The notes under the pieces: model-generated
What the model saw: only the letters and a program-made list of their open reading frames with translations
Told to the model about the DNA's origin: nothing
The model's database searches: none
Position numbers and translations under genes: made by a program
Origin: Myxococcota bacterium
Lineage (GTDB): Bacteria > Myxococcota_A > UBA9160 > PR03
Reading direction: 5' to 3'
Assembly: GCA_041611735.1 (NCBI GenBank)
Contig: JBFIML010000004.1
Coordinates: 64,001 to 128,000, forward strand
DNA length: 64,000 nucleotides
Part shown: positions 3 through 42,369 of the stretch, piece after piece
Numbering within the stretch: the first letter of the stretch is position 1
How the letters are laid out: every line of letters starts with the position of its first letter

Positions 3-1832
3 CTGACCGGGACCGTGATCCTGCTCTCCGGCTTCGCCACCCTCAGCTACGAAATCCTCTGGTTTCGAGCGCTTCGCTACCTGGTGGGCAACAGCACCTT
101 CGCGCTCACCATCATCCTCGTGGTCTTCCTGTTGGGGCTCGGCTTCGGGGCTCTGCCGCTGCGCCGGGTCGTCGCCCGCGGCCGGCCCGAACTCGACCTG
201 GCCCGCTGCCAGCTGGGCATCGCGGTGCTGGCGGCACTCGGCATCGGCGCCACCAGCCTGCTCGCCTCGTCGCCCGAGCTGAGCCAGGCCATCAGCGTGT
301 TCTCTCCCGCGGTCCAATCGCTGTCCTGGTGGTCGCGGCTCGCGATCCATGGAGGGCTGGCGCTGGTCCTGATGTTGCCCGCCACGTTGTTGATGGGCCT
401 CTCGTTTCCGCTGGCGAGCCGCCTGTTCCTGGGCGACGCCCGCCTGGTCGGGAGGCGCGTCGGCAGCGCCTACCTGCTCGCCAACGTCGGCAGCATCCTG
501 GGGGCGGTTTCGGCCGCGATGCTGCTCCTGCCACGCCTGGGCACGGTCGGAGGCACGCGCGCCGTCGTCGCCCTCAACTTCCTGCTGGGTGTAGCCGTGC
601 TGGCGGAGCTTCGCCTCCCGGCTGCGCGACCGTGGCGCAGCGTTGGGCTCGCCCTGGCGCTGATGGTGACGAGCACCGTGATCTTCCCGGAACGGATCCG
701 GTTCCCGGTCGAGGTGGAGATCGAGTTCGAGGAAGAGAACGACCTGGGCACCGTCCAGGTGATGCGCGATCCGCGCCAGCAACGGCTGAAGGCCATGGCC
801 ATCGATGGCACGATCATCGGCGTGAGCCGCGGCTGGCACCCTTCGATCTACAGCAAGCAGGTCCTGATCGCTCACCTGCCCATGGCCCTCGACGAACGGC
901 TGCGCAACGTGGTGCAGATCGGGCTGGGCTCGGGTGGGACACTGGATGCCCTGACGAGCTACGCGGCGCTCGAGCGCATCGACGCCGTCGAGATCAACCC
1001 GGCCGTCCTGCGCGGCAGCCGTTTGTTCGACGAGTCCCGGGCCGAAGCGGATCCCCGGGTACGGGTCGTCGTGGAGGACGCGATCCATTTCTTGCTGGGC
1101 AATCGGCATGCCTACGACCTCATCATCTCGGACGGCAAACAGAATGCCGATTTCTCGGGCAACTCGAAGCTGTTGAGTCGTGAGTTCTACCGGCTGGCGC
1201 TGTCCCGTTTGAGCGACCGCGGGCTCTTCGTGCAGTGGCTGCCCGCCGACACGCTGCACTCCGACTTTCGAATCATCCTGCGGACCGCTGCCGATGTCTT
1301 TCCCGAGCTGGAGGTATTCGTCGATCTTCCGGCGTCCGTCGTCGTGGTGGGGGCACGGCAACCGCTGGCGGGTCGTCCCCTGCGGTCCGCGGCGGGGTTC
1401 GCGCGGCTACGGGCGGCGCGGGATCTCGCTCCCTTCGGCATCCCGGACCTGGAGCAGCTGTTGCTGCGCTGGACGGCCAGCCGCCATGCGGTCCTGGCGG
1501 CCGTGGGACCGGGTCCCCTCAGCACCTGGAATCACTCGTCGGTCGAGTTCGGCGCGTACCGGGCGGACATCGAGGACCTGGGTCGCGCGACAGGCCGCAA
1601 CCTCTCGCTCCTGATCGAAGCCCATGACCGCCACCGCTCCGGGGAGGTTCCTGGCTTCGGAACGTTCGACGCCGCCACGCAGGAGGCTCACGATCTGGTG
1701 CGACGCGCCTACCTGAGCCTCTTCGAGCGCAACGCGTCGGAAGCCGAGCACCTGGTCCGCGCCGCCCTGGCCGTCCGCCCGGACGACCCGATGGCGAAGC
1801 GTGCCCTGGCGCTCTTCAGGACCCTGCGCTGA
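3..1832 (+). CDS. Fused MFS-like membrane domain / spermidine-synthase-like SAM-binding protein with C-terminal TPR-like helix pair (5' partial)
   Basis: Frame is open to the window edge. TM repeat motifs SGFATLSYEILW and YLLANVGSILG; SAM-binding IGLGSG...VEIN...VVEDA; LLSREFY...GLFVQW. Confidence 0.85.
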   Translation: MTGTVILLSGFATLSYEILWFRALRYLVGNSTFALTIILVVFLLGLGFGALPLRRVVARGRPELDLARCQLGIAVLAALGIGATSLLASSPELSQAISVFSPAVQSLSWWSRLAIHGGLALVLMLPATLLMGLSFPLASRLFLGDARLVGRRVGSAYLLANVGSILGAVSAAMLLLPRLGTVGGTRAVVALNFLLGVAVLAELRLPAARPWRSVGLALALMVTSTVIFPERIRFPVEVEIEFEEENDLGTVQVMRDPRQQRLKAMAIDGTIIGVSRGWHPSIYSKQVLIAHLPMALDERLRNVVQIGLGSGGTLDALTSYAALERIDAVEINPAVLRGSRLFDESRAEADPRVRVVVEDAIHFLLGNRHAYDLIISDGKQNADFSGNSKLLSREFYRLALSRLSDRGLFVQWLPADTLHSDFRIILRTAADVFPELEVFVDLPASVVVVGARQPLAGRPLRSAAGFARLRAARDLAPFGIPDLEQLLLRWTASRHAVLAAVGPGPLSTWNHSSVEFGAYRADIEDLGRATGRNLSLLIEAHDRHRSGEVPGFGTFDAATQEAHDLVRRAYLSLFERNASEAEHLVRAALAVRPDDPMAKRALALFRTLR

Positions 1833-4800
1833 GACCGGCAAGACGTTTGCGCAGGCGCGCGCGATCCGACGTGGCCGACCCGGACAGCGAGAGCGCGTCC
1901 AGGACCCGGACGATCTCGCGCGCCAGGGGCGAGTTCGGGGGGGCGGCCTGCGCGGCCTCGGCCAGGTTCGAGAGGGCCGCCACCGGAAATCCGGCGCACG
2001 CAGCGGCCCGGGCGCGCACGATCAGGTCCGGCACCGTGACCCAGACGCCCAGGCCGCGATCCACCACATCGAGGGCCTCGGCGCAGCGCGGCGCGTCGCC
2101 GCCCTCCACCCGCCAGCGCACCCGCAGCCGCGCCGCCGCCGGCTGGAGCGGATGACGGGGCGCGACGGCGCCCAGGCCATCGTCCAGCTCGCGCAGCCCC
2201 GGCCAGTCCCGGGCGGCCTCCCGCAGCCAGCCCTCCGCAACCGCGCGGCCCGCCGGGTCGAGCTCCCGCGCCCGGGAGCGGGCCGTGGGATCCCCGGCCC
2301 GGAGCGCGGCGCGCTGGGCCTCGAGCCAGCCGGCGCGCGCGTCGAGGGAGGCGGGGTCGCTCTCCAGGGCGCGCTCGAAGGCGCGCCGGGCCGGACCGGA
2401 ACGTCCCAGGGCGAGGGCCAGGAAGCCCCGCGCCGTCTCGCGCACGGCGGCGTCCGCCGTGGTCTCCATCAGCCGCTTGGCGCGGTCCGCCATGAGCTGC
2501 GCCACCAGGCGCCGCACCAGGTAGACGCGGTCCCCGGGCACTTCCTTCGCGAGCAGGGGATCGGAGTCCGCCAGCAGGCGCAGCAGTCCCTGCCGGGCCC
2601 GCGCATCGTGCATGAGCCGCGGGGAACGCATGGCCAGCTGGTTGTGATCGTCCGTGTTGAGGGGCGCGCCGGCGGCGAGGGTGCGCGTCGCGGCGCCATC
2701 CAGCACCAGGGCGGCGGCGGCGTCCTCGGGCACGCGCACGCCGAGCAGGGCCCACTCCTGGGGCGCCGACGCCACCACGCGCGGGATGCGCGCCTCCACC
2801 TCCAGGGGCTGATCCGAGGCGGCAAACAGGATCGCGGGCAGCATGGGCCGGTAGACCCGCACGTCCGCGAAGACGGCATGAAGCGTGGCCAGCAGGGAGC
2901 GCAGCAGGGCGTCGTCCAGGAACGAGAGGGCAATCCACTGCACGAAGACACCGTCCGGCTCGAGGCGGCGCTTTGCCAGCTCGAAGAACTCCCGCGTGTA
3001 GAGGTGGGCCGCTCCCGCCGTCCAGGGGTGGGACGGCTGGGAGACGATGGCGTCGTAGCGGCGCTCGGTCAGGAGCAGCGAGCCGCGCGCGTCGTTCACC
3101 GTGACCCGCACGCGCGGATCCGCCAGGGGATCGAGCATCCGCTCGGCGGCGATCACCCGGTTCGCCTCCACCACCTCGGGCTCGAGCTCGATCACGTCGA
3201 TGCGCTCGTACCGGGAGGGGAGGGCCTCCACCGCCTGGCCGCCCCCGAGCCCGATCACCAGCATGGAGCGCGCGTCCGGTCGCGCCATCAGCGGAAGGGC
3301 CCCGAGCCAGGCGGTGATCAGGAAGCGGGCGGGGCGGCCGCCGCGGGGCTGGATGGACGCCTCCGGGAGCCCGTTGGTGCGCAGCTCCCACTCGCCGTTC
3401 TCCTGGAGCAGCAGCACCGTGGCCGCCCGGCCCACAGCCAGGTAGGCGATCTCTCCGCTGCTCGGCGTCGGGTAGAAGGGCGACGAGCGCAGCAGGCGCC
3501 AGGGCGAGGTCGGCGGGGCCAGAACGAGCACCAGGAAGCCGCCGGCCACGGCCACCAGGGCGCGCCGGGGCAGCGGCCGCGCCAGGCCCAGGGCACCGAG
3601 GGCCAGCAGCAGGTTCGTGGCCATGCCCGCGCGCACGGTGCCCGCGTAGCCGAGCGCCGGGATCACCAGGAACCCGGCGGCGATCGAGCCGACGATGGCG
3701 CCCAGGGTGTTCCAGGCGTAGGCGCGGGCGCTCACCGGTCCGGCGTCCGCCTCGCTGCGCGCCAGCACGCGCACCACCAGGGGAAAGGTGGCCCCGATGC
3801 CGAGGGCGGCGGGCAGCAGCATCGCCGCGGCCAGCACCACGTCGCCGCCGAACGAAGCCGACACACCGGTGGAGCCCAGGCGCGCGGCCAGGGCGGGCAA
3901 TCGGTCCAGGCTCGCGAAGGCGGCGTAGGTGCACGCGGCAATCACTCCCTGGGCCGCCGCGAAGCCCAGCAGCGAGCCCTCCCGGGTGCGGGCGAAGCGG
4001 GACGCCACGGCGCTGCCCAGGGCGATGCCGGCCAGGAAGCTGGCCAGCATGGTGGCGAAAGCGTAGACGCTCCCCCCCAGCAGGTGGCCCAGGAGTCGGG
4101 TCCAGAGCACCTCGTAGGTGAAGGAGAGCACGCCGGACACGAAGAGGAGTGCGAGCAGCCAGCGGGTGCGGTCGCCTCCCCGGCGGAGCCCGGCTCGCGG
4201 GCCGGCCGAGACGACCGGTCGCGGCGGAAAGGCGCGGGCCAGGAGCGCCGCCACCCCGAAGACTGCCGCGTTGGTGGCGACGCCCACGAAGATGGTGTGT
4301 CGCAGGCCCAGGGCGGGCAGCAGCACGAAGGCGGCGGTCACCGTGCCCGCCACGGCCCCGATCGTGTTGGTGGCGTAGAGCTGACCGACCCGGCGCCCGA
4401 CCTCCGCGTCGCTGCGCACGGCGTGGCGCGCCAGGAGCGGAAGCGTGGCGCCCATCAGCGCCGTCGGTACCAGCAGGATCCCGAAGGAGGCCGCCAGGTA
4501 GAAGAGGGTCGTGGCGAGGCCCCCCTGGGCCGGCGGATCGGGGCGTCCCCCGAAGCCGAGCACGAGGAGCGACGTGGAGCCGTCGATGGCCCAGGGAACG
4601 GCCAGGGCCGCCGCGGCGATGCCGAGCTCGAGCAGCGCGTAGGCCAGCACCGGACGGGAGATGCGCGACACGAAGCGCCCCGCCACCCCCGCACCGAGGG
4701 CGAGCCCGCTCATGTACGCGGCCAGCACGGTGGCCACGGCCAGGTCCGACGTGCCGAACACGAAGGCGAACTCGCGGGTCCAGGCGGTCTCGTAGAGGAG

Positions 4801-4863
4801 CGCCGCGAAGCCCGACAGGAAGAAGCAGACGAGGACGCCCGCGTAGCCGAGCCGCGACGTCAA
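1816..4863 (-). CDS. Fused MFS-like (6+6+1 TM) / spermidine-synthase-like protein with C-terminal TPR region
   Basis: TTG start overlaps the upstream TGA (TTGA) with GGAGG ahead; alternative ATG at 4899. Duplicated TM halves SGFAALLYETAWTR / SGVLSFTYEVLWTR; IGLGGG, IELEP, NDAR, SQPSHPW, LYTREFF. Confidence 0.85.
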   Translation of the reverse strand: MTSRLGYAGVLVCFFLSGFAALLYETAWTREFAFVFGTSDLAVATVLAAYMSGLALGAGVAGRFVSRISRPVLAYALLELGIAAAALAVPWAIDGSTSLLVLGFGGRPDPPAQGGLATTLFYLAASFGILLVPTALMGATLPLLARHAVRSDAEVGRRVGQLYATNTIGAVAGTVTAAFVLLPALGLRHTIFVGVATNAAVFGVAALLARAFPPRPVVSAGPRAGLRRGGDRTRWLLALLFVSGVLSFTYEVLWTRLLGHLLGGSVYAFATMLASFLAGIALGSAVASRFARTREGSLLGFAAAQGVIAACTYAAFASLDRLPALAARLGSTGVSASFGGDVVLAAAMLLPAALGIGATFPLVVRVLARSEADAGPVSARAYAWNTLGAIVGSIAAGFLVIPALGYAGTVRAGMATNLLLALGALGLARPLPRRALVAVAGGFLVLVLAPPTSPWRLLRSSPFYPTPSSGEIAYLAVGRAATVLLLQENGEWELRTNGLPEASIQPRGGRPARFLITAWLGALPLMARPDARSMLVIGLGGGQAVEALPSRYERIDVIELEPEVVEANRVIAAERMLDPLADPRVRVTVNDARGSLLLTERRYDAIVSQPSHPWTAGAAHLYTREFFELAKRRLEPDGVFVQWIALSFLDDALLRSLLATLHAVFADVRVYRPMLPAILFAASDQPLEVEARIPRVVASAPQEWALLGVRVPEDAAAALVLDGAATRTLAAGAPLNTDDHNQLAMRSPRLMHDARARQGLLRLLADSDPLLAKEVPGDRVYLVRRLVAQLMADRAKRLMETTADAAVRETARGFLALALGRSGPARRAFERALESDPASLDARAGWLEAQRAALRAGDPTARSRARELDPAGRAVAEGWLREAARDWPGLRELDDGLGAVAPRHPLQPAAARLRVRWRVEGGDAPRCAEALDVVDRGLGVWVTVPDLIVRARAAACAGFPVAALSNLAEAAQAAPPNSPLAREIVRVLDALSLSGSATSDRARLRKRLAGLSAGS

Positions 4864-5795
4864 GGGCTTCCTCCCGGGGGGTGTGAGGCGGGACGGCATA
4901 GCGAAGCCTGCTCTCCGGCGCCTCCGGCGCGCCGCAGCGGACCGCCTGCTGCGCCTCCTCGCGCTCGTTTTCGCGCGGACACGTGCAGGCCCCACGAGGG
5001 CAGGCGGCCCAGGAGCCGCGCCTCGAGCCACAGCAGCCGGTCCACGGCCCGGATCGCCAGGGCGGCGGCCGAGCCCGCCGCCACCGGGTCCGACGCCCCG
5101 GCCACCAGGTCCCCGGTGGTGCGCGGCGCCGACCCCGCCATGCGTGCGGCGGCCAGAGCGAGGAAGACGCCCACGTCGGCCAGGTTTCCGATCACGTGCA
5201 GGCTGTGACGCACGCGCAGGATCTCGAACCCCTGCGCCTCGAGCAGGGCGAGGACCTGCCGGCGCCGGAAGTGCTGGACGTGCCCGGCCAGACGGCGCTT
5301 GAGCCCGCGCGGCCCGCCCTGGCCCGGAAGCCAGCGCCACAGGCTCGTCGGGTCGCCCTCGCAGGGCACGTGCAGGTGCAGCACGCCGTCCTGGGCGAGA
5401 ACGCGCCGCAACTCCGCCAGGATCCGCCCGGGGTCCGGCACGTGCTCGAGCACGTCGAGGCCGAGCACCGCGTCGAACTCGGCGTCGGCGGCGGGCAAGG
5501 CCGCGCCCGGCGAGGCGACGGCGCGCAGCTCGAGGCCGGGCGAGGCTGCGGCGGCCCGCGCGAGCGCCGCCTGGCTCAGGTCGACGCCGCACAGCTGCAG
5601 ACCGGGGCGGGCCCGGGCGACACCGCGCAGGAAACGGCCCGCCCCGCATCCCACCTCGAGCACGCGACCGCGCTCCGGCAGGAAGCGCAGCGCCTCCGCC
5701 AGGCGGAAGCCCGCGATGGTGCGCTCACCGGGGCGGACCGTCTCCAGGCCCCAGATCGCCCCCTCGTAGTCGAAGACCTCCGCCTCCCGGCTCAA
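4860..5795 (-). CDS. Class I SAM-dependent methyltransferase
   Basis: TTG start overlaps the previous stop (TTGA). Motifs VLEVGCGAG, GVDLS, FDAV..LDVLEHVPDP. Confidence 0.85.
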   Translation of the reverse strand: MSREAEVFDYEGAIWGLETVRPGERTIAGFRLAEALRFLPERGRVLEVGCGAGRFLRGVARARPGLQLCGVDLSQAALARAAAASPGLELRAVASPGAALPAADAEFDAVLGLDVLEHVPDPGRILAELRRVLAQDGVLHLHVPCEGDPTSLWRWLPGQGGPRGLKRRLAGHVQHFRRRQVLALLEAQGFEILRVRHSLHVIGNLADVGVFLALAAARMAGSAPRTTGDLVAGASDPVAAGSAAALAIRAVDRLLWLEARLLGRLPSWGLHVSARKRARGGAAGGPLRRAGGAGEQASLCRPASHPPGGSP

Positions 5796-7843
5796 AGCCT
5801 GCCGCCCTCCCCCCGGCGGCGCAGGATGCGGACCGAGCCGAGCTGCGTCTCGAGCACGTAGTGGGATTCGAGCCAGGCGAACACGGGCCGTCCCAGCACC
5901 ACCTCGTCGGGGATCTCGTCCACGCGCACGAAGTCGTCGTCCCACACCACGAAGCGCGGCGGCTTGCGTTTCAGGTCCCGGAGCACCTCGGCGCGCTGGG
6001 CCTCGGTGACGATCTGGTGGGAGAGCAGGAAGCGGATCGGGCTGGGCCGTTGGGTCAGGTAGTGGTAGGCGGCGTTGTTGGGCAGGAACAGCACGGGATC
6101 CGAGGGCTCCGTGTGGGCCACCACCCAGCGCTGCACGCGTCGCACATTGGAATCTCCGGGGGGCCGGATCTGGTTCTTCGCGATCAAGGTGAAGTTGCGG
6201 GCGGCACGGCGGAAGGAGTGGACGGCGTCGGCTCCGAGGAAGCCGAGGCCGCCCACCAGCAGGAGCCCCACCAGTACGGCCAGCCGCCAAGCCGCCAGGG
6301 CCCGCAGCGGTCGCGCGGCCAGGAGCGGGAGGCTCCGATCGAGCGCGACCACCAGCAACATCGCGGGTACCGCGAAGCCCGTGACGATGTGGTTCAAGTC
6401 GCTGCGACCCAGGGCCGTACGGAAGGCGAGAAGTCCGAACAGGGCCACCAGCGCCACCATGAAGCGCTGGGGATGCGTGGCCAGGTCGGCCCGCAGGGCG
6501 GCCAACGAGGCCAGCGGGCGTCGGGGATCGAGGCAGACAACGCGCAGCGCGACGAGCAGTGCGCCCACGCACACCCCCGGACCCAGATAGCCCAGGCGGA
6601 GCATCAGAGACGACGTGGAGTCCCCCAGCGGCGCAGCGAGGGGCAGCTGTCCCACCAGGGAGGGAAACGGCAGGTTGCCGTAGCCCGCCATCAGATAGCT
6701 CGGATAGGCCACCAGATCGCGCAGCATGGGGGCGAGCGCGCCCTGGACGGCGTAGTAGGCGAGCAGCGGCGTCGTGACCGCGGCCACCGCCGTCGCGAAG
6801 GCGAGTGCACCCCGGGCATCGAGGCGCACCGCCAGCGCCAGGCCCGCCACCAGCAGCAGGCAGAGCCCGTACTCCTGGCTGTAGAGGAGCGCGACGCCAC
6901 CCAGGGCGCCGGCCACCGCGTAACCGAGCGTCCCGCCCCCGGCGAGGCCCGCATGGAGCGCCCGCAGGCCGAAGAGTGCCAGGCCGAGGCGGAGATTCAG
7001 GGACGACCCCCACACCAGGAACGGCAGCAGCAGGACGACCGCCGTGCGGCGCACCAGCGCCGCCGCCAGGAGCATCAGCGCGAACAGGGCCGCGGCGAAC
7101 GAGAGTCGGTCGTAGAGATTCCAGACGGCGATCGACCGACCCAGAAGCTCCCACAGGCCCACCAGCGCCCAGTCGTACAGTGGACCGTAGAGACAGAAGA
7201 AATCGCGTCCGTGCAGCTCGCCGCGCCCGAGCCCCAGGGCCCAGGCCAGGTGCTGGCCCGACTCGGCGAAGAAGGCCCAGGTGCCGACGACGAGACGGTC
7301 GTCGGAGACCCCCGCGATCACCTGCGCGATCACCAGCGGTAAGGCCGGCGTGCGCAGCATCGCGATGGTGAGCAGGACGAGAATCCAGACCCCCAGCCGG
7401 CGGCGCACGGGCGTCGGGTCGTCTGCTGCCGTGGGCAGGGGTGCGGGCGCTACACGGAGCCCGAGCATCGCAGCGCCGGCCCCGAAGGCCGCGAGGGCCA
7501 GCGCCGCCAGGACGGTCGGAAGCGCGAGTGCTGCCACCAGGGTGGCGGCGCCGGCGACCTCCAGCACCAGGCCCGCACGCGGTGTCCAGGGGATGCGCAC
7601 GAGCCAGCGCGCCAGTCCCCAGGTGACTAGCGCAGCGCTCACCCCGGCGAACACGAACCAGAAGATCTCCTGCTCGACCGGATAGCCGGCCTGGGTGGTG
7701 CGACTCACGATCCCGAGCGCGTTCGGGTGGTACTCGAAGCGGATGGGCAGCGTGCGGGCGAGCAGCACAGTGGCGGCGGCGGCGGCCGGCAGGGCGGGCA
7801 GGATCGCCTGGGTCGCAGGGTCCGGCGGGGGGCGCGTCGCCAT
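5792..7843 (-). CDS. Polytopic membrane protein, putative GT-C-fold glycosyltransferase with C-terminal soluble domain
   Basis: Many TM segments. GRDFFCLYGPLY loop and C-terminal HTEPSDPVLFLPN..YHYLTQRP resemble ArnT/PMT-like proteins. Confidence 0.6.
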   Translation of the reverse strand: MATRPPPDPATQAILPALPAAAAATVLLARTLPIRFEYHPNALGIVSRTTQAGYPVEQEIFWFVFAGVSAALVTWGLARWLVRIPWTPRAGLVLEVAGAATLVAALALPTVLAALALAAFGAGAAMLGLRVAPAPLPTAADDPTPVRRRLGVWILVLLTIAMLRTPALPLVIAQVIAGVSDDRLVVGTWAFFAESGQHLAWALGLGRGELHGRDFFCLYGPLYDWALVGLWELLGRSIAVWNLYDRLSFAAALFALMLLAAALVRRTAVVLLLPFLVWGSSLNLRLGLALFGLRALHAGLAGGGTLGYAVAGALGGVALLYSQEYGLCLLLVAGLALAVRLDARGALAFATAVAAVTTPLLAYYAVQGALAPMLRDLVAYPSYLMAGYGNLPFPSLVGQLPLAAPLGDSTSSLMLRLGYLGPGVCVGALLVALRVVCLDPRRPLASLAALRADLATHPQRFMVALVALFGLLAFRTALGRSDLNHIVTGFAVPAMLLVVALDRSLPLLAARPLRALAAWRLAVLVGLLLVGGLGFLGADAVHSFRRAARNFTLIAKNQIRPPGDSNVRRVQRWVVAHTEPSDPVLFLPNNAAYHYLTQRPSPIRFLLSHQIVTEAQRAEVLRDLKRKPPRFVVWDDDFVRVDEIPDEVVLGRPVFAWLESHYVLETQLGSVRILRRRGEGGRL

Positions 7844-10070: not shown

Positions 10071-12932
10071 TCAGCCGCCGGGATCCGCTTGCGCGGCCGC
10101 ACCCGGCCCCAGGGGCCCCACCCATGCCTCGGCGCGCACCCGGCCCGCAACGCAGCGACCGTTCTGGCTGCCCCCGTCCCGGCAGCGGCTCCAGAGGTCC
10201 GCCAGGACGGCGCGCTCGAAGGGCGCGCCGTGGTGGTAGTGGCTCACGTAGAGATCCGTGGCCTGCTGGGCGGCGAGCACGTCGAGCGGTGTGGCGTCGC
10301 CCGACGCGGGCCCGAGCAGCGCCGCCAGGGTCGCCAGGTGCGCGGGCGCCAGCAGCGGGCGAAGCTGGGCGTTGCGCTGGAGGCGCCCGAGCAGCCGGTC
10401 GCGCGCCGGGGACTCGGGCACCTGGCGGATCCAGCTCGCCACGAGCGTTGCGCACAGGTAGGGCATCTGCTTGCAGGCCTCCCCCACGATCTGCTCGTGC
10501 TCCGGGTCCGAGAGGCGGCCCCCGCGCTGCTCGGTCCAGCGCCGCAGCAGCGAGTTGCGCGCCCCCACCGCCGCCGCGGCGGGGCGCAGTGTCAGCGGCA
10601 GCGTCGCCGCCCGGCCGCGGAAGAAGGCATGCGCCGCGCGGTGGGCCAGGATCGGGTGGAAGATGCGGTGCACGTCGCCCTCGAAGCCGGCCGCCTGCAC
10701 CACACCGAGGGGCACCAGCTCGTGGGCCAGCAGCGCCGGGAAGCTCGCGATCCCCGCCCGGGCCAGGCCCGCCCGGATCGCCGGCTCCTGGGCGCGGCGC
10801 TGCAGCCGCTCCGGATCGAGGCTCGGCGGGCTCTCGAAGCCGAGCAGCAGCAGATCGGTCCCGAGCGTGTACCAGACGGCCACCTGGTCGAAGACCGAGG
10901 CGTAGGTGCGCAGGACCAGCTCCACCACGCTCGTGTCCGTCTCGTAGAGGTGGAACCACTGGGCGTAGACGCCGCCCGGGCGCAGGCGGTCGCGGGCCGC
11001 ACGCAGGAACTCCTGGCTGAACAGCATCTCGACGCCGGTCACCCAGGGGTTGCTCGGCTCCGAGGCGATCACGTCGTAGCGCTGGTCCGAGCGCAGCAGA
11101 GCCCGGTAGGCGTCGGAGACCACCACCTCGGTCTTGGGGTGGCCGAGGGCGCCGAGGTTCGCGTCCTCGAAGAAGCGCCCCGCCTCGATCACGCCCGGCG
11201 AGATCTCGGCCACCACCACCTTGCGCACCGAAGGCAGGGCGGCGAGCTCGCCCACGGTGACGCCGGTGCCGTAGCCGATCACGAAGGCCTGCTCCACCGG
11301 GTCGGCGAACAGCGCCGGCAGCAGCGCTGCCAGGGCCATGGTGGCGTAGTCGATCCGCACCGAGCCGTCGGCCTTGCCGTTGGTGAAGACCGCCACGTCG
11401 AACTGCCCGTCCGGGTAGCGGGTGCGCTGCACGGCCACCGAGTTGTTGGGGTCGTCGTCGTAGAACAGGACCTGGGTGGAGGTGCGGTAGTGGGAGAAGA
11501 AGGCCTCGGGACCCGCGTAGCTCGGCAGCTGGGGCTGGCGCATGCGGAACAGCCCCGAGGCCAGGCGCTCCGGCTGCCAGGCCGGGAGCAGCGCCAGGCC
11601 GAGCAGGCCCGGCACCAGCACGAAGGCAAGGGTCGCGCTGCGCGGCACCTCGAACAGCCGGATCGTGAGCAGGGTGGCGGCGACGATCACGGCGCCGACC
11701 CCGACCCGGTACACCTGGTGCAGATCCAGCCAGAAGAAGAGCAGGTAGCCGCCCAGCAGGGCGCCGAGCAGCGAGCCCACCGTGTTCCAGGCGTAGAGGC
11801 GGCCTGCCGCGTTGCCGAGGTCCCCGAACTCGCGGCGCAGCTGGTGGAAGAGCAGCGGGAGCATGGCGCCCGACAGCCCCACCGGGACGGCAAGCACCGC
11901 CAGGGCGGCACCGAAGACCAGCAGATGGAAGGGATAGAAGGCCGCGCCGTCGTCGCGGAACAGGCTGCGCAGGAGGTGGGCCCAGTAGGGCGCGTTCTGG
12001 AGCGCCGGGTAGAGCAGCAGCATGAGCCCCGCCAGGCTCCACAGGCTGCCGACCAGGAGCCCGGGCGGAATGCGCGGCAGCGCCGACACGGCGAAGGAGC
12101 CGAGCGCGATGCACAGCACGAAGACCGCCACCACCATGGAGAAGGTGAACTCGGAGGAGCCCAGGGAGAGGCCTCCGAGGCGGATCAGGACGGTCTGGAA
12201 GTCCATGGCCGCGAAGCCGACCAGCAGCGCCACCGCCGCGTAGACACCGAGCCGGAGCTGCGTGTGCTCCTGGACGCCGGTCCTCGGAAGCGCGCCCCGG
12301 CGCGTGCGGCCCAGGGCCACGAAGGCGGCGCCTGCCGCCAGGTTGATGGCGCCCATGGCCCACACCGCGCGCTCGAGCCCGAGCGCGGGCAGCAGCACGA
12401 AGCCCGCCGCCAGGGCTCCCGCAAAGGCGCCGGCGGTGTTGAAGCCGTAGACGAAGGCATGGAAGCGGGTGGCATCGGTCAGGCTGCGGGCCAGGGCCTG
12501 GGTCAGCACCGGGATCGTGCCGCCCATCAGCACCGTGGGCGGGAGGATCAGGAGCGCCGCCAGCGTCACGTCGAGCACGAAGCCCGGGCCGCCCACCTGG
12601 TGGGGGATCGCGAAGGAGAGCGCGCGCACGCCCCGGAACAGCAGCGGGAAGAGCAGCGCGTGGACGCCGATGCCGGCCTCCACGCAGCCGTAGAGCAGCA
12701 GCAGCGCCGGGGGCTCGCCGCGCCGGGCCGCGCGCTCCACCATCCCGCGCGTCACGCGCCCGAAGACGGCGTAGCCCAGGGAGAGCCCGCCCAGGAAGAG
12801 GGCCAGGACGGCGGCGGTGGCCTCGCTGTGGGAGCCGAGCAGCGTGGCCAGGTACTTCTGCCAGGCGACCTCGTAGACGAGCCCGCTGAAGCCCGTGAGC
12901 ACCGTGAGCGCCAGCGCAGCCGCCCGCACCAT
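10071..12932 (-). CDS. Fused MFS-like / spermidine-synthase-like protein
   Basis: TGFSGLVYEVAW, YGFNTAGA, YAWNTVGSLLG; TNGKADGS, IGYGTG, AEISP, SDAY, SEPSNPW, LFSQEF, YAQWFH. Confidence 0.88.
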   Translation of the reverse strand: MVRAAALALTVLTGFSGLVYEVAWQKYLATLLGSHSEATAAVLALFLGGLSLGYAVFGRVTRGMVERAARRGEPPALLLLYGCVEAGIGVHALLFPLLFRGVRALSFAIPHQVGGPGFVLDVTLAALLILPPTVLMGGTIPVLTQALARSLTDATRFHAFVYGFNTAGAFAGALAAGFVLLPALGLERAVWAMGAINLAAGAAFVALGRTRRGALPRTGVQEHTQLRLGVYAAVALLVGFAAMDFQTVLIRLGGLSLGSSEFTFSMVVAVFVLCIALGSFAVSALPRIPPGLLVGSLWSLAGLMLLLYPALQNAPYWAHLLRSLFRDDGAAFYPFHLLVFGAALAVLAVPVGLSGAMLPLLFHQLRREFGDLGNAAGRLYAWNTVGSLLGALLGGYLLFFWLDLHQVYRVGVGAVIVAATLLTIRLFEVPRSATLAFVLVPGLLGLALLPAWQPERLASGLFRMRQPQLPSYAGPEAFFSHYRTSTQVLFYDDDPNNSVAVQRTRYPDGQFDVAVFTNGKADGSVRIDYATMALAALLPALFADPVEQAFVIGYGTGVTVGELAALPSVRKVVVAEISPGVIEAGRFFEDANLGALGHPKTEVVVSDAYRALLRSDQRYDVIASEPSNPWVTGVEMLFSQEFLRAARDRLRPGGVYAQWFHLYETDTSVVELVLRTYASVFDQVAVWYTLGTDLLLLGFESPPSLDPERLQRRAQEPAIRAGLARAGIASFPALLAHELVPLGVVQAAGFEGDVHRIFHPILAHRAAHAFFRGRAATLPLTLRPAAAAVGARNSLLRRWTEQRGGRLSDPEHEQIVGEACKQMPYLCATLVASWIRQVPESPARDRLLGRLQRNAQLRPLLAPAHLATLAALLGPASGDATPLDVLAAQQATDLYVSHYHHGAPFERAVLADLWSRCRDGGSQNGRCVAGRVRAEAWVGPLGPGAAAQADPGG

Positions 12933-21631: not shown

Positions 21632-23617
21632 GTGCGCAGCCCGGGCGACGTGGCGGCCTGGTGCGCGGTCGCGCTGGCGGTGGCGCTGGCCCTGGGGCTC
21701 ACCGCGCACCGCATCGCCTTCTCGCCCGCCGGGATCGTGATCCTCCCAGACCCGCAGGCGCCCTGGATCCAGGCGGACGCGCCGGTCACCGCCCTGCTGC
21801 AGCAGTGGGGACGGGAGGAGGCGCCGGTCACGCGCTTCTTCACCTCGTTCTCCCTGGAGCGGCCAGCGGCCCGGGCGGAGCTCTCGGTGCGCGCCTTTGG
21901 CCCGGCCCAGGTCACCCTGAACGGCGAGCCCGTCTCCTTCGCTGCGAGCCCGCCCGGGACGTCGGACTGGAAGCGCTTCCGCCGCACCGAGGTGGGCCTG
22001 CGGGCCGGCAGCAACACGCTGCACGTGGACGTGGCGAACCGCCGGGGACCGGCGCTCCTCGCCCTGCGCCTGGCGGGCGACGGTTTCGCGCGGACCACGG
22101 GCCCCGACTGGCTGGCCCTGGCCGACGACGGCACGACGCGGCGCACGCGCCCGGCCAGCGACCGGCGCCGGCACCCGGACTCCTACGCGAGCGAGCGCCC
22201 GCTCGCCGCCCTGGTCGAGATGGGCAGCGCGGTCGCGCTGCTGGGCGGACTGGCGGCGACGGCCTTCCTGGTGGCGCGGCGCCGGGCGGTCGGGGCTCCA
22301 TCCTGGCTCCCGGCCGCCGCTGGGGGCGGCGTCGTCCTGGCCTGGGTCGTCCTCCTGGCCGTGAAGCTGCGTCACCTGGGCCTCGACGTGGGCTTCGACG
22401 CCGGCAACCACCTGGACTACGTGGAGGGGCTGCGTCGGGACGGGCGCCTGCCCCGGGCCACGGAGCACTGGTCCGCCTACCACCCTCCCCTCTTCTACCT
22501 GGCGAGCGCCGGGCTGGATGCCCTGGCGGGAGCCCTGGGCGCAGTCCGCAGCCACTCGCTGGCCCTGAAGGGGGTTCCCTTCCTGGCGGGCCTCGGGAAC
22601 GTGGCCCTCGCCGGGGCGCTCGCCCGGCGCCTCGTGCCCGAGGACCGCGTCGCCCGCGCCCTGGCCATCGTCTTCGCCGGCTTCCTGCCCGTGAACCTCT
22701 ACGTGGCGGCCTACTTCTCCAACGAGGGCCTGCACGCCTTCCTGGCCGGCCTCGCCCTGGTGCTGGCGGTGGGGCTGCTGCGGGCCGACCGGGTGAGCCT
22801 GCGCGGCGCGGCGCTCGTCTCCCTGGCCCTCGGCGCGGCGCTGCTCACCAAGTTCACGGCCGTGCTGGTGGCGGGGCCGGTGCTCCTGGCCCTGGGCGCG
22901 AAGATCCTGGTGGTCGAGCGCGGGCGGCCCGGGGCGGCGGGCGGGCGCCTCGCCGCCCTGCTGCTCCCGCTGCTCGGGGTGGCCGGCTGGTTCTATGTGC
23001 GCAACGTCCTGGAGTACGGGCGCCCGCTGGTGGGCAACTGGGACCTGCCGGACCCGCGCCGCAGCTGGTGGTCGCCGCCGGGCTTCCACACGCCGGGCTA
23101 CTACCTGCACTTCGGCGAGGCGCTGCTGCGTCCCTACTTCGCGGGCTTCGTCTCGTTCTGGGACGCGCTCTACTCCACCTTCTGGGGCGACGGCTTCGTG
23201 GGCGGCCGCGCGGGCGTGCGCTGGCGTCACCCGCTCTGGAACTACACGTTCATGGCCGCGGGCTACCTGCTGGCCCTGCCCGCCACGCTGCTGCTCGGAG
23301 CCGGCTTCGTCGGGATCCTGGGCGCCGCGTGGCGCGACCGGGATGCGCGCCGCCGCGCCGCCTTCGGCCTGCTCGGGCTCGTGTGCGCCGCCATGGGCTT
23401 CGCCGTCTTCTGGGCCACCCTGGCGCTCCCCTACCACGGCCAGGCCCGGGCCTCGTACCTGCTCGCCCTGGTCCCCGTCTGGGCGCTCTGCTTCGCCCGG
23501 GCGACGAGCGGGCTCGAGCGTCGGCTCGCCGCCCGGGGCTGGACGGCGGCGCGCGCGCTCCTGGTCGCCTGGCTCGGCGCGCTCTTCGGCGTGCTCTACC
23601 TGGGCTTCGCGGGCTGA
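21632..23617 (+). CDS. GT-C (ArnT/PMT-like) glycosyltransferase with N-terminal beta-rich extracytoplasmic domain
   Basis: GFDAGNHLDY, YHPPLFY, SNEGL, LLTKFT, GWFYVRN, QARASY. Confidence 0.7.
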   Translation: MRSPGDVAAWCAVALAVALALGLTAHRIAFSPAGIVILPDPQAPWIQADAPVTALLQQWGREEAPVTRFFTSFSLERPAARAELSVRAFGPAQVTLNGEPVSFAASPPGTSDWKRFRRTEVGLRAGSNTLHVDVANRRGPALLALRLAGDGFARTTGPDWLALADDGTTRRTRPASDRRRHPDSYASERPLAALVEMGSAVALLGGLAATAFLVARRRAVGAPSWLPAAAGGGVVLAWVVLLAVKLRHLGLDVGFDAGNHLDYVEGLRRDGRLPRATEHWSAYHPPLFYLASAGLDALAGALGAVRSHSLALKGVPFLAGLGNVALAGALARRLVPEDRVARALAIVFAGFLPVNLYVAAYFSNEGLHAFLAGLALVLAVGLLRADRVSLRGAALVSLALGAALLTKFTAVLVAGPVLLALGAKILVVERGRPGAAGGRLAALLLPLLGVAGWFYVRNVLEYGRPLVGNWDLPDPRRSWWSPPGFHTPGYYLHFGEALLRPYFAGFVSFWDALYSTFWGDGFVGGRAGVRWRHPLWNYTFMAAGYLLALPATLLLGAGFVGILGAAWRDRDARRRAAFGLLGLVCAAMGFAVFWATLALPYHGQARASYLLALVPVWALCFARATSGLERRLAARGWTAARALLVAWLGALFGVLYLGFAG

Positions 23618-23619
23618 GC

Positions 23620-25245
23620 GTGCAGCGGACGACCCGGCGGCGGGCGGTGCTGTGCGTGGCGCTGGTCGCCGCCCTGGCGGCGCTCGCCGGGAGCCGACTG
23701 GAGCTCCCGGGTCCCTACTACGACGAGGTGGTGCAGGCCGTCCCGGCCGCCGAGTTCCTGGATGGGCGCATCCGCGGCGCACCGCTGCCGGGCTCCCAGG
23801 CCCTGCACCTGGCCGGACGTCCGTTTCCCTGGCTCACCCAGGCCTACATGGGGGCGCTCAAGAGCCAGCTCCTGATTGCCTCCTTCGCCCTGGCGGGAGA
23901 GCAGGTGGCGGTGCTGCGCGCCACGACGCTGGTCTGGAGCACCCTCGGCCTGCTGGCTGCCCTCGTCTTCGGCTGGCGCGCCCTCGGCGCCGGGGCGGCC
24001 GCGCTGGGCGGCCTGCTGCTGGTCACCGATCCGAGCTTCGTCTTCCTGAGCCGTCACGACTGGGGCTCCTTCGCCCTGGGCTTCGCCCTGCGCTGCGGCG
24101 CCCTGGCCGCGGCCGTGCTCTGGTGGGACAGCGGGAAGGCACGCTGGGCGCTGGCGGCCGGCGCCGCCCTCGGCCTGGGCGTCTACAACAAGATCGACTT
24201 CGCGGTGTTCCCCGCCGCGGCCCTCGGCGCGCTGCTCGTCGCCGGGCGGGGCACCGTCGCGGCGGCCCTGCGCCAGCGACGGGCGCAGGTGCTGGGCGCC
24301 GCGGCGCTGGCGGGGCTCCTGGCGCTGCCCATTGCCGTTTCCCTCTTCACCCTGGCGGGCGAGGCGGGCCGGCTGGCCGAGCAGGTGGCCTTCGCCGAGA
24401 AGTGGCGCGCGCACGGGGCCGTGCTGGACGGCTCCTACTTCCTGCGCCTGATGCGCGCCGGGGGGCGCTTCGACGTCCTGTTCGCGGAGCCGGCCCCGCG
24501 CGGCGGCCTGGGCCTGGCCGCCGCCGTGGCCGCCCTGGGTCTCGGGGCGGCTCTCCTGCGCCGCCGCGCCCCGCGCGGGAGCGCCTTCGTGCTGGTGTGC
24601 GGAGGCCTGACGCTCGCCCTCCTGCTGCTGGCCCCCGGTGCGGCGCGTGCCCACCACGTGATGAATGCCTGGCCCTTTCCGCACTGGATCCTGGCCCTCG
24701 GTCTCCTGGGCCTGTGGGGTCGGGGCGGGGGGCGTGCGTTCTGGCTGCGCCGGACGCTCGCCGTGGCGGTGCTGGCCGGCGTGGTGGGCGCGAACCTGCG
24801 CGTGGTCGAGCGCACCCACGCGGAGATCCGGGCCAGCGGCGGACGCGGCTTCTGGAGCGATGCCATCTCGACCTTCGCCGCGCAGGCGCGGGAGAGCCCG
24901 GGGCTGCGCGTCGTCTGCCTGGACTGGGGCTTCCACACCCAGATCGCCCTGCTGGCGCCCGGGGTCCGCTCCCTGGACGCCATCTGGGCGGCGCGGCGCG
25001 AGCTGGCGCGGGGGCGCGCCTGGGTCCTGGAGGGCGACGCCCGCACCATCTACCTGGTGCACGCGCCGCCCTACGACCTGTTTCCGCTGGGCAGCGCCTT
25101 CCGGGACGCCCTGGACGAGCGCCCCGCGGCGGACGTGACGGTTCGCCGCTACCGCGACCGGCTGGGCCACGAGGCGTTCCGGGCCGTGCGCCTGGCCGCA
25201 CCCCACCGGCTCGGCTACGACGGCGCGTCGCTGCGGCTGGACTGA
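23620..25245 (+). CDS. GT-C (ArnT/PMT-like) glycosyltransferase
   Basis: PYYDEVVQ after TM1; YMGALKS; LRA; GLGVYNK; multiple TMs then a soluble C-terminal domain. Confidence 0.7.
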   Translation: MQRTTRRRAVLCVALVAALAALAGSRLELPGPYYDEVVQAVPAAEFLDGRIRGAPLPGSQALHLAGRPFPWLTQAYMGALKSQLLIASFALAGEQVAVLRATTLVWSTLGLLAALVFGWRALGAGAAALGGLLLVTDPSFVFLSRHDWGSFALGFALRCGALAAAVLWWDSGKARWALAAGAALGLGVYNKIDFAVFPAAALGALLVAGRGTVAAALRQRRAQVLGAAALAGLLALPIAVSLFTLAGEAGRLAEQVAFAEKWRAHGAVLDGSYFLRLMRAGGRFDVLFAEPAPRGGLGLAAAVAALGLGAALLRRRAPRGSAFVLVCGGLTLALLLLAPGAARAHHVMNAWPFPHWILALGLLGLWGRGGGRAFWLRRTLAVAVLAGVVGANLRVVERTHAEIRASGGRGFWSDAISTFAAQARESPGLRVVCLDWGFHTQIALLAPGVRSLDAIWAARRELARGRAWVLEGDARTIYLVHAPPYDLFPLGSAFRDALDERPAADVTVRRYRDRLGHEAFRAVRLAAPHRLGYDGASLRLD

Positions 25246-26846
25246 GCCGGGCCGACGCGCTGCCACACCACGAAGGAGGCCCAGGGGCGCGTCTCCTCCC
25301 AGAGCGGCCGGCGCGCCCACAGGCCGCGGGCCGCGTCCCCGGTCACGAAGCTCACGCTGCCGTCCGGCCGGAACGGGGTGGCCGCCACCAGCCGGTAGTC
25401 CGCCTCCACCAGCTCCCGGAGCCCGCGGCGCAGATCGGGCGCCGTGTCGGGATGCTCGAGCAGGGACGTCTCCAGGAACGTGGCGACGATGAAGGCGGGC
25501 CGGGCCGCGCGGACCTGGCGCAGCGCCTCCTGCTGACGCTCCCGCACGCCGGGAAAGGGAGCCAGCAGGGGATACACGAAGATGTAGCGGGTCGCGCTGC
25601 GGCGCCGGGCGTAGAAGAGCACCTGCGGCTCCGAGCCGAACACGAACAGGCGATCCGTGGCGGTCGAGTGCCGGGCCACCCAGTCCGCCACCGCCAGGGA
25701 CTCCACGAAGGGGTTGTTGGCGTAGAGGCGGCGGCACTTCGCCGCGGGATCGCCCGGCAGGTAGTACCAGGGCGCGCTCCATACCGCGTGCAGCACCAGG
25801 ACCGCCGCGCCGGCTACGGCCAGCAGGCGGGTACGCGGGTCCCGACCCAGTCGCCGGGCGGCCTCGTCCAGGCCGGCGCCCGCCAGCAGCGCCAGGGGAG
25901 GCGCCACGAACATGAAGTAGTGGTTCCGGAAGTACCCGCCGGCGGAGGCCGCCAGGCACGCCGCCCCGAGCCAGGCCAGGCTCCAGGCGAAGCCCCGCCC
26001 CGGGGCGGCACCCGGCGCGCTCCCGGGCCGGAGGCGGAGCGCCAGGCCGGCGGCGGCCACGAGAACGAGGGGCGCCAGGCTCGGCAGGAGCTCCCCCGCC
26101 TGGAGGCGCAGGGACGCCCAGTAGGCGGAGAACGGCAGCGAGGTCCCGTACGCCAGGTTGTACCGCACCGTGGCATCGAAGAAGGGCTGCCACGCGCCGG
26201 CGGCCACGAAGTAGGCGACCCCCGCTGCCCCCGCGCCGAGCCCGCCCGCGGCGTAGGCGGCCAGGGGCGCGAGCCGCCCGCGCGTGCCCCACGCGATGCG
26301 GGCCGCTGCGACGGCCACCACGGGAGCCGCCACGGGCTTGAAGCTGAGGGCCGCGGCACCGGCCAGGCCGGCGGCGAAGGCCCAGCGAGCGGCCGGCCCG
26401 GCCACGCTGCGCTCCGCCGCCAGCATGCCGGCCGCCAGGGGCAGGAGGGCCAGCAGCTCCGTGTTGGCGGCGTTGCCGAGGAAGACGGGATCCACGGTGA
26501 GGAGCACCAGCAGCAGACCGGCGGCGAGCGCGGCGGGAGCCGAGAACCAGCGCCACCCGAGAGCCAGGACGCAGGCCAGCGTACCCAGGGTCCAGAGCTG
26601 GGCGCCCCAGTGGATGGCCCCCGGCGTGGCGCCAAGGGTGCGCAGGATGCCGGCATAGACGGCCACTGCGCCGGGGGGCTTCTGGAGGAAGCTGTCGCGG
26701 TAGGGCACGTCGCCCGCGAGCCAGGCCCAGGCGGTGTAGGCGTACTCCCCTTCGTCCCGCTCCAGGGGCACGTCGGCCACCGTGGCGCGAAGTCCGAGCG
26801 CCAGCGCGCCCACCAGGCCGGCGGCCAGCAGGGGCGTGGCCCTCAA
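25215..26846 (-). CDS. GT-C (family 39/ArnT-like) glycosyltransferase
   Basis: TTG start in a TTGA overlap. ERDEGEY, PYRD...KPPG, ANTE, FKP, NHYF, FGSEPQVLFYA. Confidence 0.8.
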   Translation of the reverse strand: MRATPLLAAGLVGALALGLRATVADVPLERDEGEYAYTAWAWLAGDVPYRDSFLQKPPGAVAVYAGILRTLGATPGAIHWGAQLWTLGTLACVLALGWRWFSAPAALAAGLLLVLLTVDPVFLGNAANTELLALLPLAAGMLAAERSVAGPAARWAFAAGLAGAAALSFKPVAAPVVAVAAARIAWGTRGRLAPLAAYAAGGLGAGAAGVAYFVAAGAWQPFFDATVRYNLAYGTSLPFSAYWASLRLQAGELLPSLAPLVLVAAAGLALRLRPGSAPGAAPGRGFAWSLAWLGAACLAASAGGYFRNHYFMFVAPPLALLAGAGLDEAARRLGRDPRTRLLAVAGAAVLVLHAVWSAPWYYLPGDPAAKCRRLYANNPFVESLAVADWVARHSTATDRLFVFGSEPQVLFYARRRSATRYIFVYPLLAPFPGVRERQQEALRQVRAARPAFIVATFLETSLLEHPDTAPDLRRGLRELVEADYRLVAATPFRPDGSVSFVTGDAARGLWARRPLWEETRPWASFVVWQRVGPAQSSRSDAPS

Positions 26847-29802: not shown

Positions 29803-29834
29803 GGGGCGATGCTACCGCGCCACTTGCCGGCCGT

Positions 29835-35024: not shown

Positions 35025-35088
35025 AGGAGCCCGCCCACCCCTCGCCCCGACACTCGGGCACCCATCGCTGCGCGACCCGACGATCGGG

Positions 35089-41562: not shown

Positions 41563-42369
41563 ATGCGGAAGTTGATCGGCATCGTAGCTGCCGGGTTCCT
41601 GGCCATGGGTGCCGGGACCGCCAGCGCGGCCACTCTGCCTTTCTCGGGCTTCTTCTCCCTGGGCCTCGGAACCCTTCCGGGCATCATCGACTTCGGCGGC
41701 GGTTTTGCGTCGGTGAACGGCTCCCTGGGCGGCGGCCACTTGAACAGCCTCAACTTGGCCGGCGGGACCTTCGGCCCGATCACGGTGAGCCTGCCGGTGA
41801 CGGCCAGCGCCACCGTGCAGTCCGTGCGCTTCACGGGCATCAAGAACCAGGCCGGGGCCTTCGCCTCGCTCTCCGGCGGGCCCCCGGGCGGCGGCCCCAT
41901 GGGCTTGGCGGGCCTCGCGAAGATCTGCCTGGTCTTCGACTTGACCTGCCAGTTCGTGAACGTGCCGGTGCCCTTCACGCCCATGGCCGGCGTGGGCTTT
42001 GGCGTGGGCGGCACCCAGCTCGTGGCCGGCGCGGTGTCCCTGACGCTGAAGCATGCGCCTTGGACGAGCGGCCAGCCGGTCCTCAATATCCACGTCCCGG
42101 CCTCCACCGTGACCACGCCGATGCTGCCGGGCGGGTTCGCGCACGACGCGGCTTCGCTCACCTCCAACACGGCGGCCAACTCGGGGACCGTGCAGCTCGT
42201 GACCGCGTCGCGGGTCTACACGAGCCTGACCGGGGCCTTCCCGGAGCTGCCGGTGTTCGGCATCATCCAGCTGCACTTCGTGCCGGAGCCGGGGACCCTG
42301 CTGCTGCTCGGCTCGGGTGTGGCGGGGCTCGCGATCCTGGGTCGCAGCCGGCGCAACAAGCGCTCGTAG
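41563..42369 (+). CDS. PEP-CTERM sorting domain-containing protein (paralog 2)
   Basis: SD AGGAGA; signal peptide MRKLIG...TASA; C-terminal VPEPGTLLLLGSGVAGLAILGRSRRNKRS. Confidence 0.93.
   Translation: MRKLIGIVAAGFLAMGAGTASAATLPFSGFFSLGLGTLPGIIDFGGGFASVNGSLGGGHLNSLNLAGGTFGPITVSLPVTASATVQSVRFTGIKNQAGAFASLSGGPPGGGPMGLAGLAKICLVFDLTCQFVNVPVPFTPMAGVGFGVGGTQLVAGAVSLTLKHAPWTSGQPVLNIHVPASTVTTPMLPGGFAHDAASLTSNTAANSGTVQLVTASRVYTSLTGAFPELPVFGIIQLHFVPEPGTLLLLGSGVAGLAILGRSRRNKRS

Follow-up and report, generated by a model that had tools for sequence, protein, structure and literature searches.

The gene at positions 1816 to 4863 on the minus strand of a 64,000-nucleotide stretch of the Myxococcota bacterium contig JBFIML010000004.1 (assembly GCA_041611735.1, positions 64,001 to 128,000; hereafter, the window) encodes a 1015-residue membrane protein that we read as a S-adenosylmethionine (SAM)-dependent transferase of the spermidine synthase (SpeE) fold, directed outward and fused to a functional domain of the major facilitator superfamily (MFS). 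We assign this overall explanation a probability of roughly 0.55. The protein is an ordinary member of NF037959, a family that is named by its architecture and is uncharacterised. Its parts are listed below, with TM for transmembrane helix, GC3 for the G+C content at third codon positions and TPR for tetratricopeptide repeat.

1816..4863, minus strand: whole gene, 1015 amino acids plus stop, with MFS domain, TM13, SpeE-like domain and TPR-like tail; recognised from the GC3 frame, the translation, the NF037959 match and the start context.
4237..4863, minus strand: N-terminal lobe of the MFS domain, TM1 to TM6, residues 1-209, with the TM1 motif SGFAALLYETAWTR, E79 in TM3 and the TM5 motif YATNTIGAVAG.
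4162..4236, minus strand: central loop joining the two lobes, residues 210-234; contains 7 Arg and is predicted to face the cytoplasm.
3580..4161, minus strand: C-terminal lobe of the MFS domain, TM7 to TM12, residues 235-428, 35% identical to the N-terminal lobe, with E251 in the TM7 motif.
3508..3567, minus strand: thirteenth transmembrane helix, TM13, residues 433-452, RRALVAVAGGFLVLVLAPPT, with ARPLP just ahead; helix 433-448 in the structural model.
2611..3507, minus strand: domain of the spermidine synthase fold, residues 453-751, consisting of an N-terminal beta domain and a Rossmann domain.
3235..3258, minus strand: motif I, VIGLGGGQ, residues 536-543, with Gly541 at the place of the Asp of SpeE GGGDG.
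3022..3057, minus strand: motif IV, YDAIVSQPSHPW, residues 603-614, with Q609 and H612 at the places of two catalytic Asp of SpeE.
1819..2610, minus strand: TPR-like tail, residues 752-1015; all helical over 752-1012 by DSSP on the model.

The domain that follows TM13, which a preliminary description of this gene had taken from the sequence alone for a SAM-binding Rossmann domain, turns out to be a complete SpeE fold with the cofactor-binding residues intact. Pfam PF01564 matches it with E 2.2e-16 (60.4 bits against a cut-off of 22.9), and residues 451-751 superimpose on residues 1-306 of the T. thermophilus aminopropyltransferase 1uir with Z 26.5 over 284 aligned residues; Foldseek (E 6.6e-10) and a profile search (E 2.4e-23) agree. 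No part of the SpeE fold as seen in 1uir, 3o4f and 6qmm is missing, the N-terminal beta domain being present too, and the protein retains the Gly-rich loop, the Glu that binds ribose and the Asp that binds adenine. Conservation was followed in a set of 151 sequences, comprising this protein and 150 representatives, with motif positions taken from the alignment to 6qmm and 3o4f. The residues that face the adenosine part of the cofactor, G538, G540, E559 and D591, are invariant in this set (151/151), and the hallmarks of a class I SAM-dependent transferase are present, namely, the GxGxG loop and two acidic residues, one where beta-2 ends and the other binding adenine. Given these invariant residues, a SAM-type cofactor is likely for the SpeE-like domain.

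The remainder of the active site differs from that of SpeE. At position 541, the place of the Asp of GGGDG, there is Gly in 125 sequences, Ala in 20, Thr in four and Ser in two, and Asp or Glu in none of the 151; the two catalytic Asp are replaced by Gln and His, and Q609, S611, H612, P613 and W614 of the resulting QPSHPW stretch are invariant throughout the set. The domain also differs from SpeE in being fused to a membrane part and in its predicted location outside the cytoplasm. For plant spermidine synthase (SPDS), the part of PMC3725402 drawn on here describes the Asp as thought to repel the carboxylate of SAM and to bind the amine of decarboxylated SAM (dcSAM), and reports that its change to Ile abolished SPDS activity and conferred a weak methyl transfer activity with SAM as donor that increased with two further changes. 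The cut-offs of the SpeE equivalog models are not reached (TIGR00417, 63.2 against 249.55; NF002010, 70.1 against 260; NF002956, 127.1 against 472). A search for SAM decarboxylase (AdoMetDC, PF02675) in the 95%-complete genome found none, despite the eleven SpeE-like open frames that it contains, and the same search matched 7 of 14 control genomes; a search with PF01536 is uninformative, as it matched nothing in the controls. A canonical spermidine synthase is ruled out because the dcSAM-selecting Asp, at a position that is never acidic, and both catalytic Asp are lost and no AdoMetDC was found. Of the two cofactors named in the preliminary description, SAM and dcSAM, the latter thus becomes unlikely, with the selecting Asp absent from 151 of 151 sequences and no AdoMetDC found in the genome. 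On this evidence, a SAM-type cofactor combined with new acceptor chemistry is more likely than aminopropyl transfer.

The membrane part is built of two homologous halves of six helices each, as had been noticed by eye. An alignment of residues 1-215 with residues 230-434 over 214 columns shows 35% identity (E 4e-25), a value far above that between the halves of ordinary MFS proteins, and the motif pairs quoted in favour of the duplication, SGFAALLYETAWTR / SGVLSFTYEVLWTR and YATNTIGAVAG / YAWNTLGAIVG, are found at their places. A hydropathy scan at a threshold of 1.5 yields 12 segments, all ahead of residue 453; TM12 (410-428), which is weaker in the scan, was added by homology to TM6, bringing the total to 13. 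In the AlphaFold2 model of the 1015-residue protein, which was built on a 60-sequence alignment (pLDDT 92.4, pTM 0.91), the helices match TM1 to TM12, with two adjacent pairs each merged as one long helix, and are followed by a helix at 433-448 and by beta structure from residue 471. The count of 13 helices proposed at the outset is therefore borne out by the scan, the homology of TM12 to TM6 and the model.

In a fold search of 48,161 representative PDB chains, independent of Foldseek, residues 1-433 match VMAT2 (9kqa) with Z 31.5 (root-mean-square deviation 3.7; 359 residues aligned, spanning 4-429) and the whole MFS transporters NorA, OxlT, VAChT, MFSD10 and SotB with Z 28-30. By these Z-scores and by the identity between the lobes, this region has the 12 helices in two similar six-helix lobes that characterise MFS. 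The best structural matches are antiporters of the DHA1/VMAT type (9kqa, 8xob, 7lo8 and 6kki; Z 28-31.5), which share with this protein the presence of acidic residues within the membrane, here E79 and E251, but are only 10-16% identical to it in sequence, and the MFS_1 profile is not significant; other MFS families score nearly as high (Z 23-29), so that no subfamily can be assigned. Several polar residues within the helices are near-invariant among the 151 sequences (E79 in 149, E251 in 151, Y163, N166 and R256 in 150 each, N198 and T386 in 149 each), and a motif Y-E/Q-x-x-W-x-R is repeated at the outer ends of TM1 and TM7, the helices that line the central cavity in MFS proteins. These residues would suit a transport or binding site, whose ligand they do not indicate. 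The strict conservation of E79, E251, N166, R256 and others argues that the MFS domain is more than an anchor.

The side of the membrane on which the enzyme domain lies hinges on TM13. In this protein the helix, ALVAVAGGFLVLVLAPP, is purely hydrophobic and has no amphipathic pattern; a 17-residue window with a hydropathy of at least 1.6 is found at this place in 142 of the 151 sequences, and, in the fold search, the SpeE fold starts 3 residues past the end of the helix. All known MFS proteins have both termini in the cytoplasm. The numbers of Lys and Arg in the loops average 20.0 on the inside against 7.4 on the outside, with the inside exceeding the outside in 60 of 60 sequences; in a wider set, from which 7 of the 151 sequences that do not cover all 13 helices were dropped, the means are 18.2 and 6.5, and the inside count is greater in all 144. 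Each of these 144 full-length sequences has an odd number of helices and an inside N-terminus. DSSP on the model identifies residue 107, in the outer TM3-TM4 loop, as the sole strand or bridge residue before residue 461; its bridge partner must therefore be at residue 461 or beyond, in the C-terminal part, and this contact would place the C-terminal part on the non-cytoplasmic face in the model. The outward orientation asserted in the preliminary description is accordingly retained as a prediction: a periplasmic C-terminal part is the best reading and is well supported by the positive-inside counts, the odd helix number and the one model contact.

Under the explanation that we favour, the 12-helix MFS domain would start and end in the cytoplasm, TM13 would then take the chain across the membrane, and the SpeE-fold domain and the TPR-like tail would pack against the transporter from the periplasmic side. 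The most likely activity would be SAM-dependent transfer, probably methylation of an amine or a similar nucleophile, and the target may be an exported envelope protein or glycan gripped by the tail. The leading idea is that the MFS domain could carry the cofactor across the membrane; alternatively, it could carry the acceptor. As for the tail, in which TPRs had been announced, its all-helical build stands and the family profile matches designed TPR proteins (E about 5e-6), with PF14559 or PF13432 detected in a few homologs, but no Pfam TPR is found in this protein at E<=0.01; we call the tail TPR-like because the match is at the profile level and there is no Pfam TPR call.

The most specific form of this explanation, a self-feeding transporter-methyltransferase, would have the MFS domain export SAM, perhaps against S-adenosylhomocysteine, into its own outward SpeE-like methyltransferase; the family would then mark an undescribed periplasmic modification chemistry, with the fungal enzyme NHMT as its eukaryotic counterpart. 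We put this forward tentatively, as a possibility with the odds against it, made plausible by analogy with the MFS-type SAM transporters of the plant Golgi and with NHMT. The latter (A. nidulans AN4663) has seven transmembrane helices followed by a SpdS-like domain whose dcSAM motif has Ile where the D/E would stand, resides in the endoplasmic reticulum (ER) and methylates His1 of secreted lytic polysaccharide monooxygenases, for which its transmembrane part is required; its authors suggest that scarce ER SAM possibly limits the yield of methylation and cite the plant Golgi SAM transporters (PMC10349129, in the portion used here). NHMT resembles the present protein in the odd number of helices ahead of a SpdS-like domain without the D/E of the dcSAM motif and in having secreted-protein substrates, in a compartment topologically equivalent to the periplasm. 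It differs in being eukaryotic, in lacking a TPR tail and in its seven helices, which the authors describe as unlike known folds; the likeness is one of description, and the same portion of PMC10349129 gives no sidedness for NHMT's own SpdS-like domain.

The plant Golgi SAM transporters GoSAMT belong to the MFS and have been proposed to supply SAM to methyltransferases that lie across a membrane from the cytosol, as far as they are described in the available text of bioRxiv 10.1101/2021.07.06.451061 and PMC9946043; unlike the protein considered here, they are separate proteins with no enzyme fusion, and they too are likened to it by description, not by sequence. A third relevant enzyme is putrescine N-methyltransferase (PMT), which is derived from SPDS and, according to the part of PMC3725402 cited above, uses the SpeE fold with SAM, not dcSAM, after the loss of the motif-I Asp. 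As a soluble enzyme of the cytosol that retains its putrescine site, PMT differs from the present family, which has QPSHPW instead.

A number of observations weigh against the outward, SAM-dependent reading. The flanks of TM13 are similar in charge, with 2.2 Lys+Arg before it and 1.8 in the first 15 residues after it, so that its direction is deduced from the MFS rule and helix parity; at 16 residues in the model, the helix is also short. In the model of the paralog at 10071-12932 no beta-bridge occurs in any membrane loop; the contact of residue 107 is thus not repeated there, and that model is silent on sidedness. Conserved Cys or Cys pairs in the soluble part, sought as a sign of export, are absent from the 151-sequence set. 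Pfam MFS_1 (PF07690) is not significant on residues 1-453 (E 0.16; 11.3 bits, below the cut-off of 33.4), with a precomputed PF07690 match in 49 of the 120 homologs listed. MFS motif A has the form G-x-x-x-D-R-x-G-R-K/R and is located in the TM2-TM3 loop; this loop here, GAGVAGRFVSRISRP, is basic and Gly-rich and, by eye, is without the Asp of the motif. Short homologs whose sole N-terminal feature resembles a signal anchor have the appearance of fragments or of genes with miscalled starts; three of the short forms (P0174, P0200 and P0233) begin with a TM13-like segment alone and may be miscalled or split genes. The genes next to this one in the window are not kept beside 48 ortholog loci of at least 14 kb each (methyltransferase in 4/48, 658-residue membrane protein in 0/48, GT9 in 0/48). 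To our knowledge, SAM is unknown in the bacterial periplasm, and we know of no SAM-dependent enzyme at work there and of no route by which SAM would reach it. The matches listed in our literature search contained nothing on a periplasmic or extracytoplasmic methyltransferase or on SAM export, and the search found no functional study of any fused MFS/spermidine synthase (COG4262) member, Rv2601 included.

Homologs that have lost one part of the protein were also sought; a soluble domain standing alone or behind a signal peptide would be direct evidence of export. Among 248 short homologs (120 listed), the candidates for signal-peptide or stand-alone soluble-domain forms are mostly fragments from short contigs or have starts inside the domain. 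Among 405 short matches (120 listed), those considered as a stand-alone MFS type without the enzyme domain are mostly 'partial' records, and none is convincing.

Three other explanations can be set beside this one. If helix 13 were re-entrant or lay on the membrane surface, the C-terminal part would be cytoplasmic and the protein would be a synthase-exporter fusion in which, for example, a modified amine is made and then exported by the MFS domain. The short 16-residue helix with its similar flank charges (2.2 versus 1.8 Lys+Arg) would fit this arrangement, as would the established cytoplasmic location of SAM and the presence of the cation and amine exporters VMAT2, NorA and SotB among the nearest MFS structures. 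We nevertheless consider it improbable, because TM13 has no amphipathic pattern and is hydrophobic in 142 of 151 relatives, all 144 full-length sequences have an odd helix count with the N-terminus inside, the model has the outside TM3-TM4 loop in contact with the soluble part, and the SpeE fold begins so soon, 3 residues, after the helix ends. An outward domain that is no enzyme at all, serving instead as a nucleoside-, polyamine- or peptide-binding module that gates or targets the MFS domain, or as a scaffold of an envelope complex, would account for the loss of both SpeE catalytic aspartates, would need no periplasmic source of cofactor, none being known to us, and would agree with a tail suggestive of protein binding. 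This, too, seems to us poorly probable given that the replacing residues, Q609, S611, H612, P613 and W614, are as invariant (151/151) as those that bind adenosine, a pattern in keeping with a site adapted to new chemistry and not with a decayed one; moreover, fungal NHMT and plant PMT are altered SpeE folds that are active as SAM methyltransferases.

The explanation closest to our own keeps the outward, active transferase and differs in the role of the MFS domain, which would carry the acceptor, such as a polyamine, another cation or a lipid-linked or lyso-lipid compound, or would only anchor the enzyme, with the cofactor arriving by another route. MFS lipid flippases are indeed among the structural matches (LtaA, Z 24.6; Spns1, Z 28.1), the gene lies within a glycan/envelope gene cluster, and ten paralogs with differing motif IV suit different acceptors better than one common cofactor. 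Set against this are the near-invariance of polar residues in the membrane across 151 diverged sequences (E79 in 149, E251 in 151, N166 in 150, R256 in 150), which suits a common ligand, and the fact that no separate SAM exporter is known; we judge this variant unlikely, and we continue to prefer the outward SpeE-like transferase fused to a functional MFS domain.

The protein is assigned to NF037959 ('fused MFS/spermidine synthase') by a score of 140.3 bits, the cut-off being 40. Its two TM halves match the same part of the model, and the SpeE part matches it as well, so that the defining arrangement of the family, in which a SpeE-like domain comes after a TM unit on the same polypeptide, is found here with the TM unit present twice. 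The 480-position model, in contrast, consists of one 6-TM unit, an extra helix and the SpeE part, and the present protein further differs from it by the addition of the TPR-like tail of about 260 residues. Relatives in NCBI and JGI are named 'fused MFS/spermidine synthase', 'spermidine synthase' or 'predicted membrane-bound spermidine synthase' (COG4262-type); by its active-site residues, which contradict it, the 'spermidine synthase' label of the family is wrong. In a scan of 1.84 billion representatives, 30,667 representative clusters were retrieved at E<=1e-3 and 8,407 at E<=1e-30, and the best 150 representatives all align end to end, over about 1000 residues. Of 151 genomes sampled from the phylum, 99 have a match at E<=1e-30, and most of these matches cover residues from about 10 to 750, that is, the core of MFS domain, TM13 and SpeE part; a search of the protein atlas returned only matches from the same family, all of them bacterial.

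The 4.1-Mb genome itself contains ten long open frames of the family, three of which lie within 13 kb in the window, along with one soluble SpeE-like frame of 261 residues. The ten long paralogs are distributed over contigs C4 (to which the window belongs), C51, C68, C8, C35, C2, C87 and C98, and their motif IV variants, SQPSHPW, SEPSNPW, NTLHPW, DLFVPW, EPMPPY, DPAPPV and DGKQNA, differ in a manner that suggests different acceptors. The two other family members in the window are as follows.

3..1832, plus strand: paralog cut by the start of the window; NF037959 at 88.3 bits; 32% identical to the gene at 1816-4863 and convergent with it.
10071..12932, minus strand: paralog of 953 residues; NF037959 at 94.9 bits; 13 hydrophobic segments; motif IV SEPSNPW.

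The same build had been claimed for both of these paralogs, and it holds for both. The paralog at 10071-12932 has 13 helices in the scan and in its model (pLDDT 92.2), which shows the same membrane helices and a thirteenth helix at 431-447, and the paralog at 3-1832 continues upstream of the window, where its second TM half is located (G000:C4:63367-63930). The convergent genes at 3-1832 and 1816-4863 overlap by 17 nucleotides at their 3' ends (1816-1832).

At the window's G+C content of 69-78%, many long open reading frames (ORFs) are spurious; the frame of 1816-4863 on the minus strand has a GC3 of 0.92-0.97, and the plot of third-position G+C delineates a real gene from 1816 to about 4900. 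Translation appears to start at a TTG at 4863, with a ribosome-binding-like stretch, GGGAGGAAG, just ahead; an ATG 39 nucleotides upstream of this TTG is an alternative start. The TTG start and the stop of the upstream gene overlap as TTGA, and the gene is the third and last of three apparently coupled minus-strand genes, an apparent operon of which the first two members are given here.

5792..7768, minus strand: first gene, a polytopic membrane protein of 658 residues with no Pfam or NCBIfam match.
4860..5795, minus strand: second gene, a class I methyltransferase (Pfam Methyltransf_23/11/12) with no signal peptide, whose stop overlaps the start of the 1816-4863 gene.

Genes in the 50 kb around these code for a GT9 heptosyltransferase, several class I methyltransferases and PMT_2-type membrane glycosyltransferases, one of them fused to TPR, as well as an AlgX-like SGNH protein, GT2, GlmS, GlmU and UDP-GlcNAc 2-epimerase. 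Positions 13045-53287 form a large envelope gene cluster: of its four sulfatases, two are fused to TPR and three have clear lipoboxes, and it also holds a PEP-CTERM protein (41563-42369), three PrsT-like TPR lipoproteins, the AlgX-like SGNH protein and a GT2, membrane proteins of the PMT_2 type and of DUF2142, and more class I methyltransferases. Signal peptides of the lipoprotein type are found on the sulfatases, TPR fusions included, and on the TPR proteins, and exported enzyme-TPR fusions are, for this reason, a theme of the region. Within the same cluster, seven coding-like ORFs of 368 to 682 residues (at 21632-23617, 25215-31883 and 33450-36195) lack a significant match in Pfam and essentially in NCBIfam as well, one of them showing a sub-threshold match to the end of a TPR group only. 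In the survey of the 48 ortholog loci, the recurring neighbour clusters, each identified by a Pfam scan of one representative, are sulfatases (21 loci), TPR proteins (15), TonB-dependent receptors (10) and STT3/PMT_2 (7); sulfatases within 8 kb of orthologs (loci L013-L091) are found in Myxococcota, Planctomycetota, Gammaproteobacteria and others. The lipoprotein signals of the neighbours and this recurrence of sulfatases count in favour of the explanation preferred here.

Outside the window, at G000:C6:61405-62151 (locus L092), the genome encodes an isoaspartyl methyltransferase (PCMT), one of three strong ones, with a 44-codon N-terminal extension that resembles a lipoprotein signal peptide, MAPSPLRNRYASLLAWVALVGIATAAC, ends in ATAAC and has a coding-like GC3 of 0.84. 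If the extension is real, this PCMT would be an exported SAM-dependent enzyme, and it could be a further user of periplasmic SAM if the MFS domain supplies it. None of the strong PCMT genes (C6, C58 and C1) or the AmmeMemoRadiSam genes (C70) is on a contig that bears a paralog of the fused family.

Correcting the 'spermidine synthase' label affects predictions of the polyamine pathway in many genomes. If the topology proposed here is right, a very common family poses the problem of how SAM is supplied to the periplasm, and the fused transporter is the obvious candidate for an answer. Should the MFS domain indeed feed SAM to its own methyltransferase, the family would represent a widespread, undescribed SAM-dependent chemistry in the bacterial periplasm.

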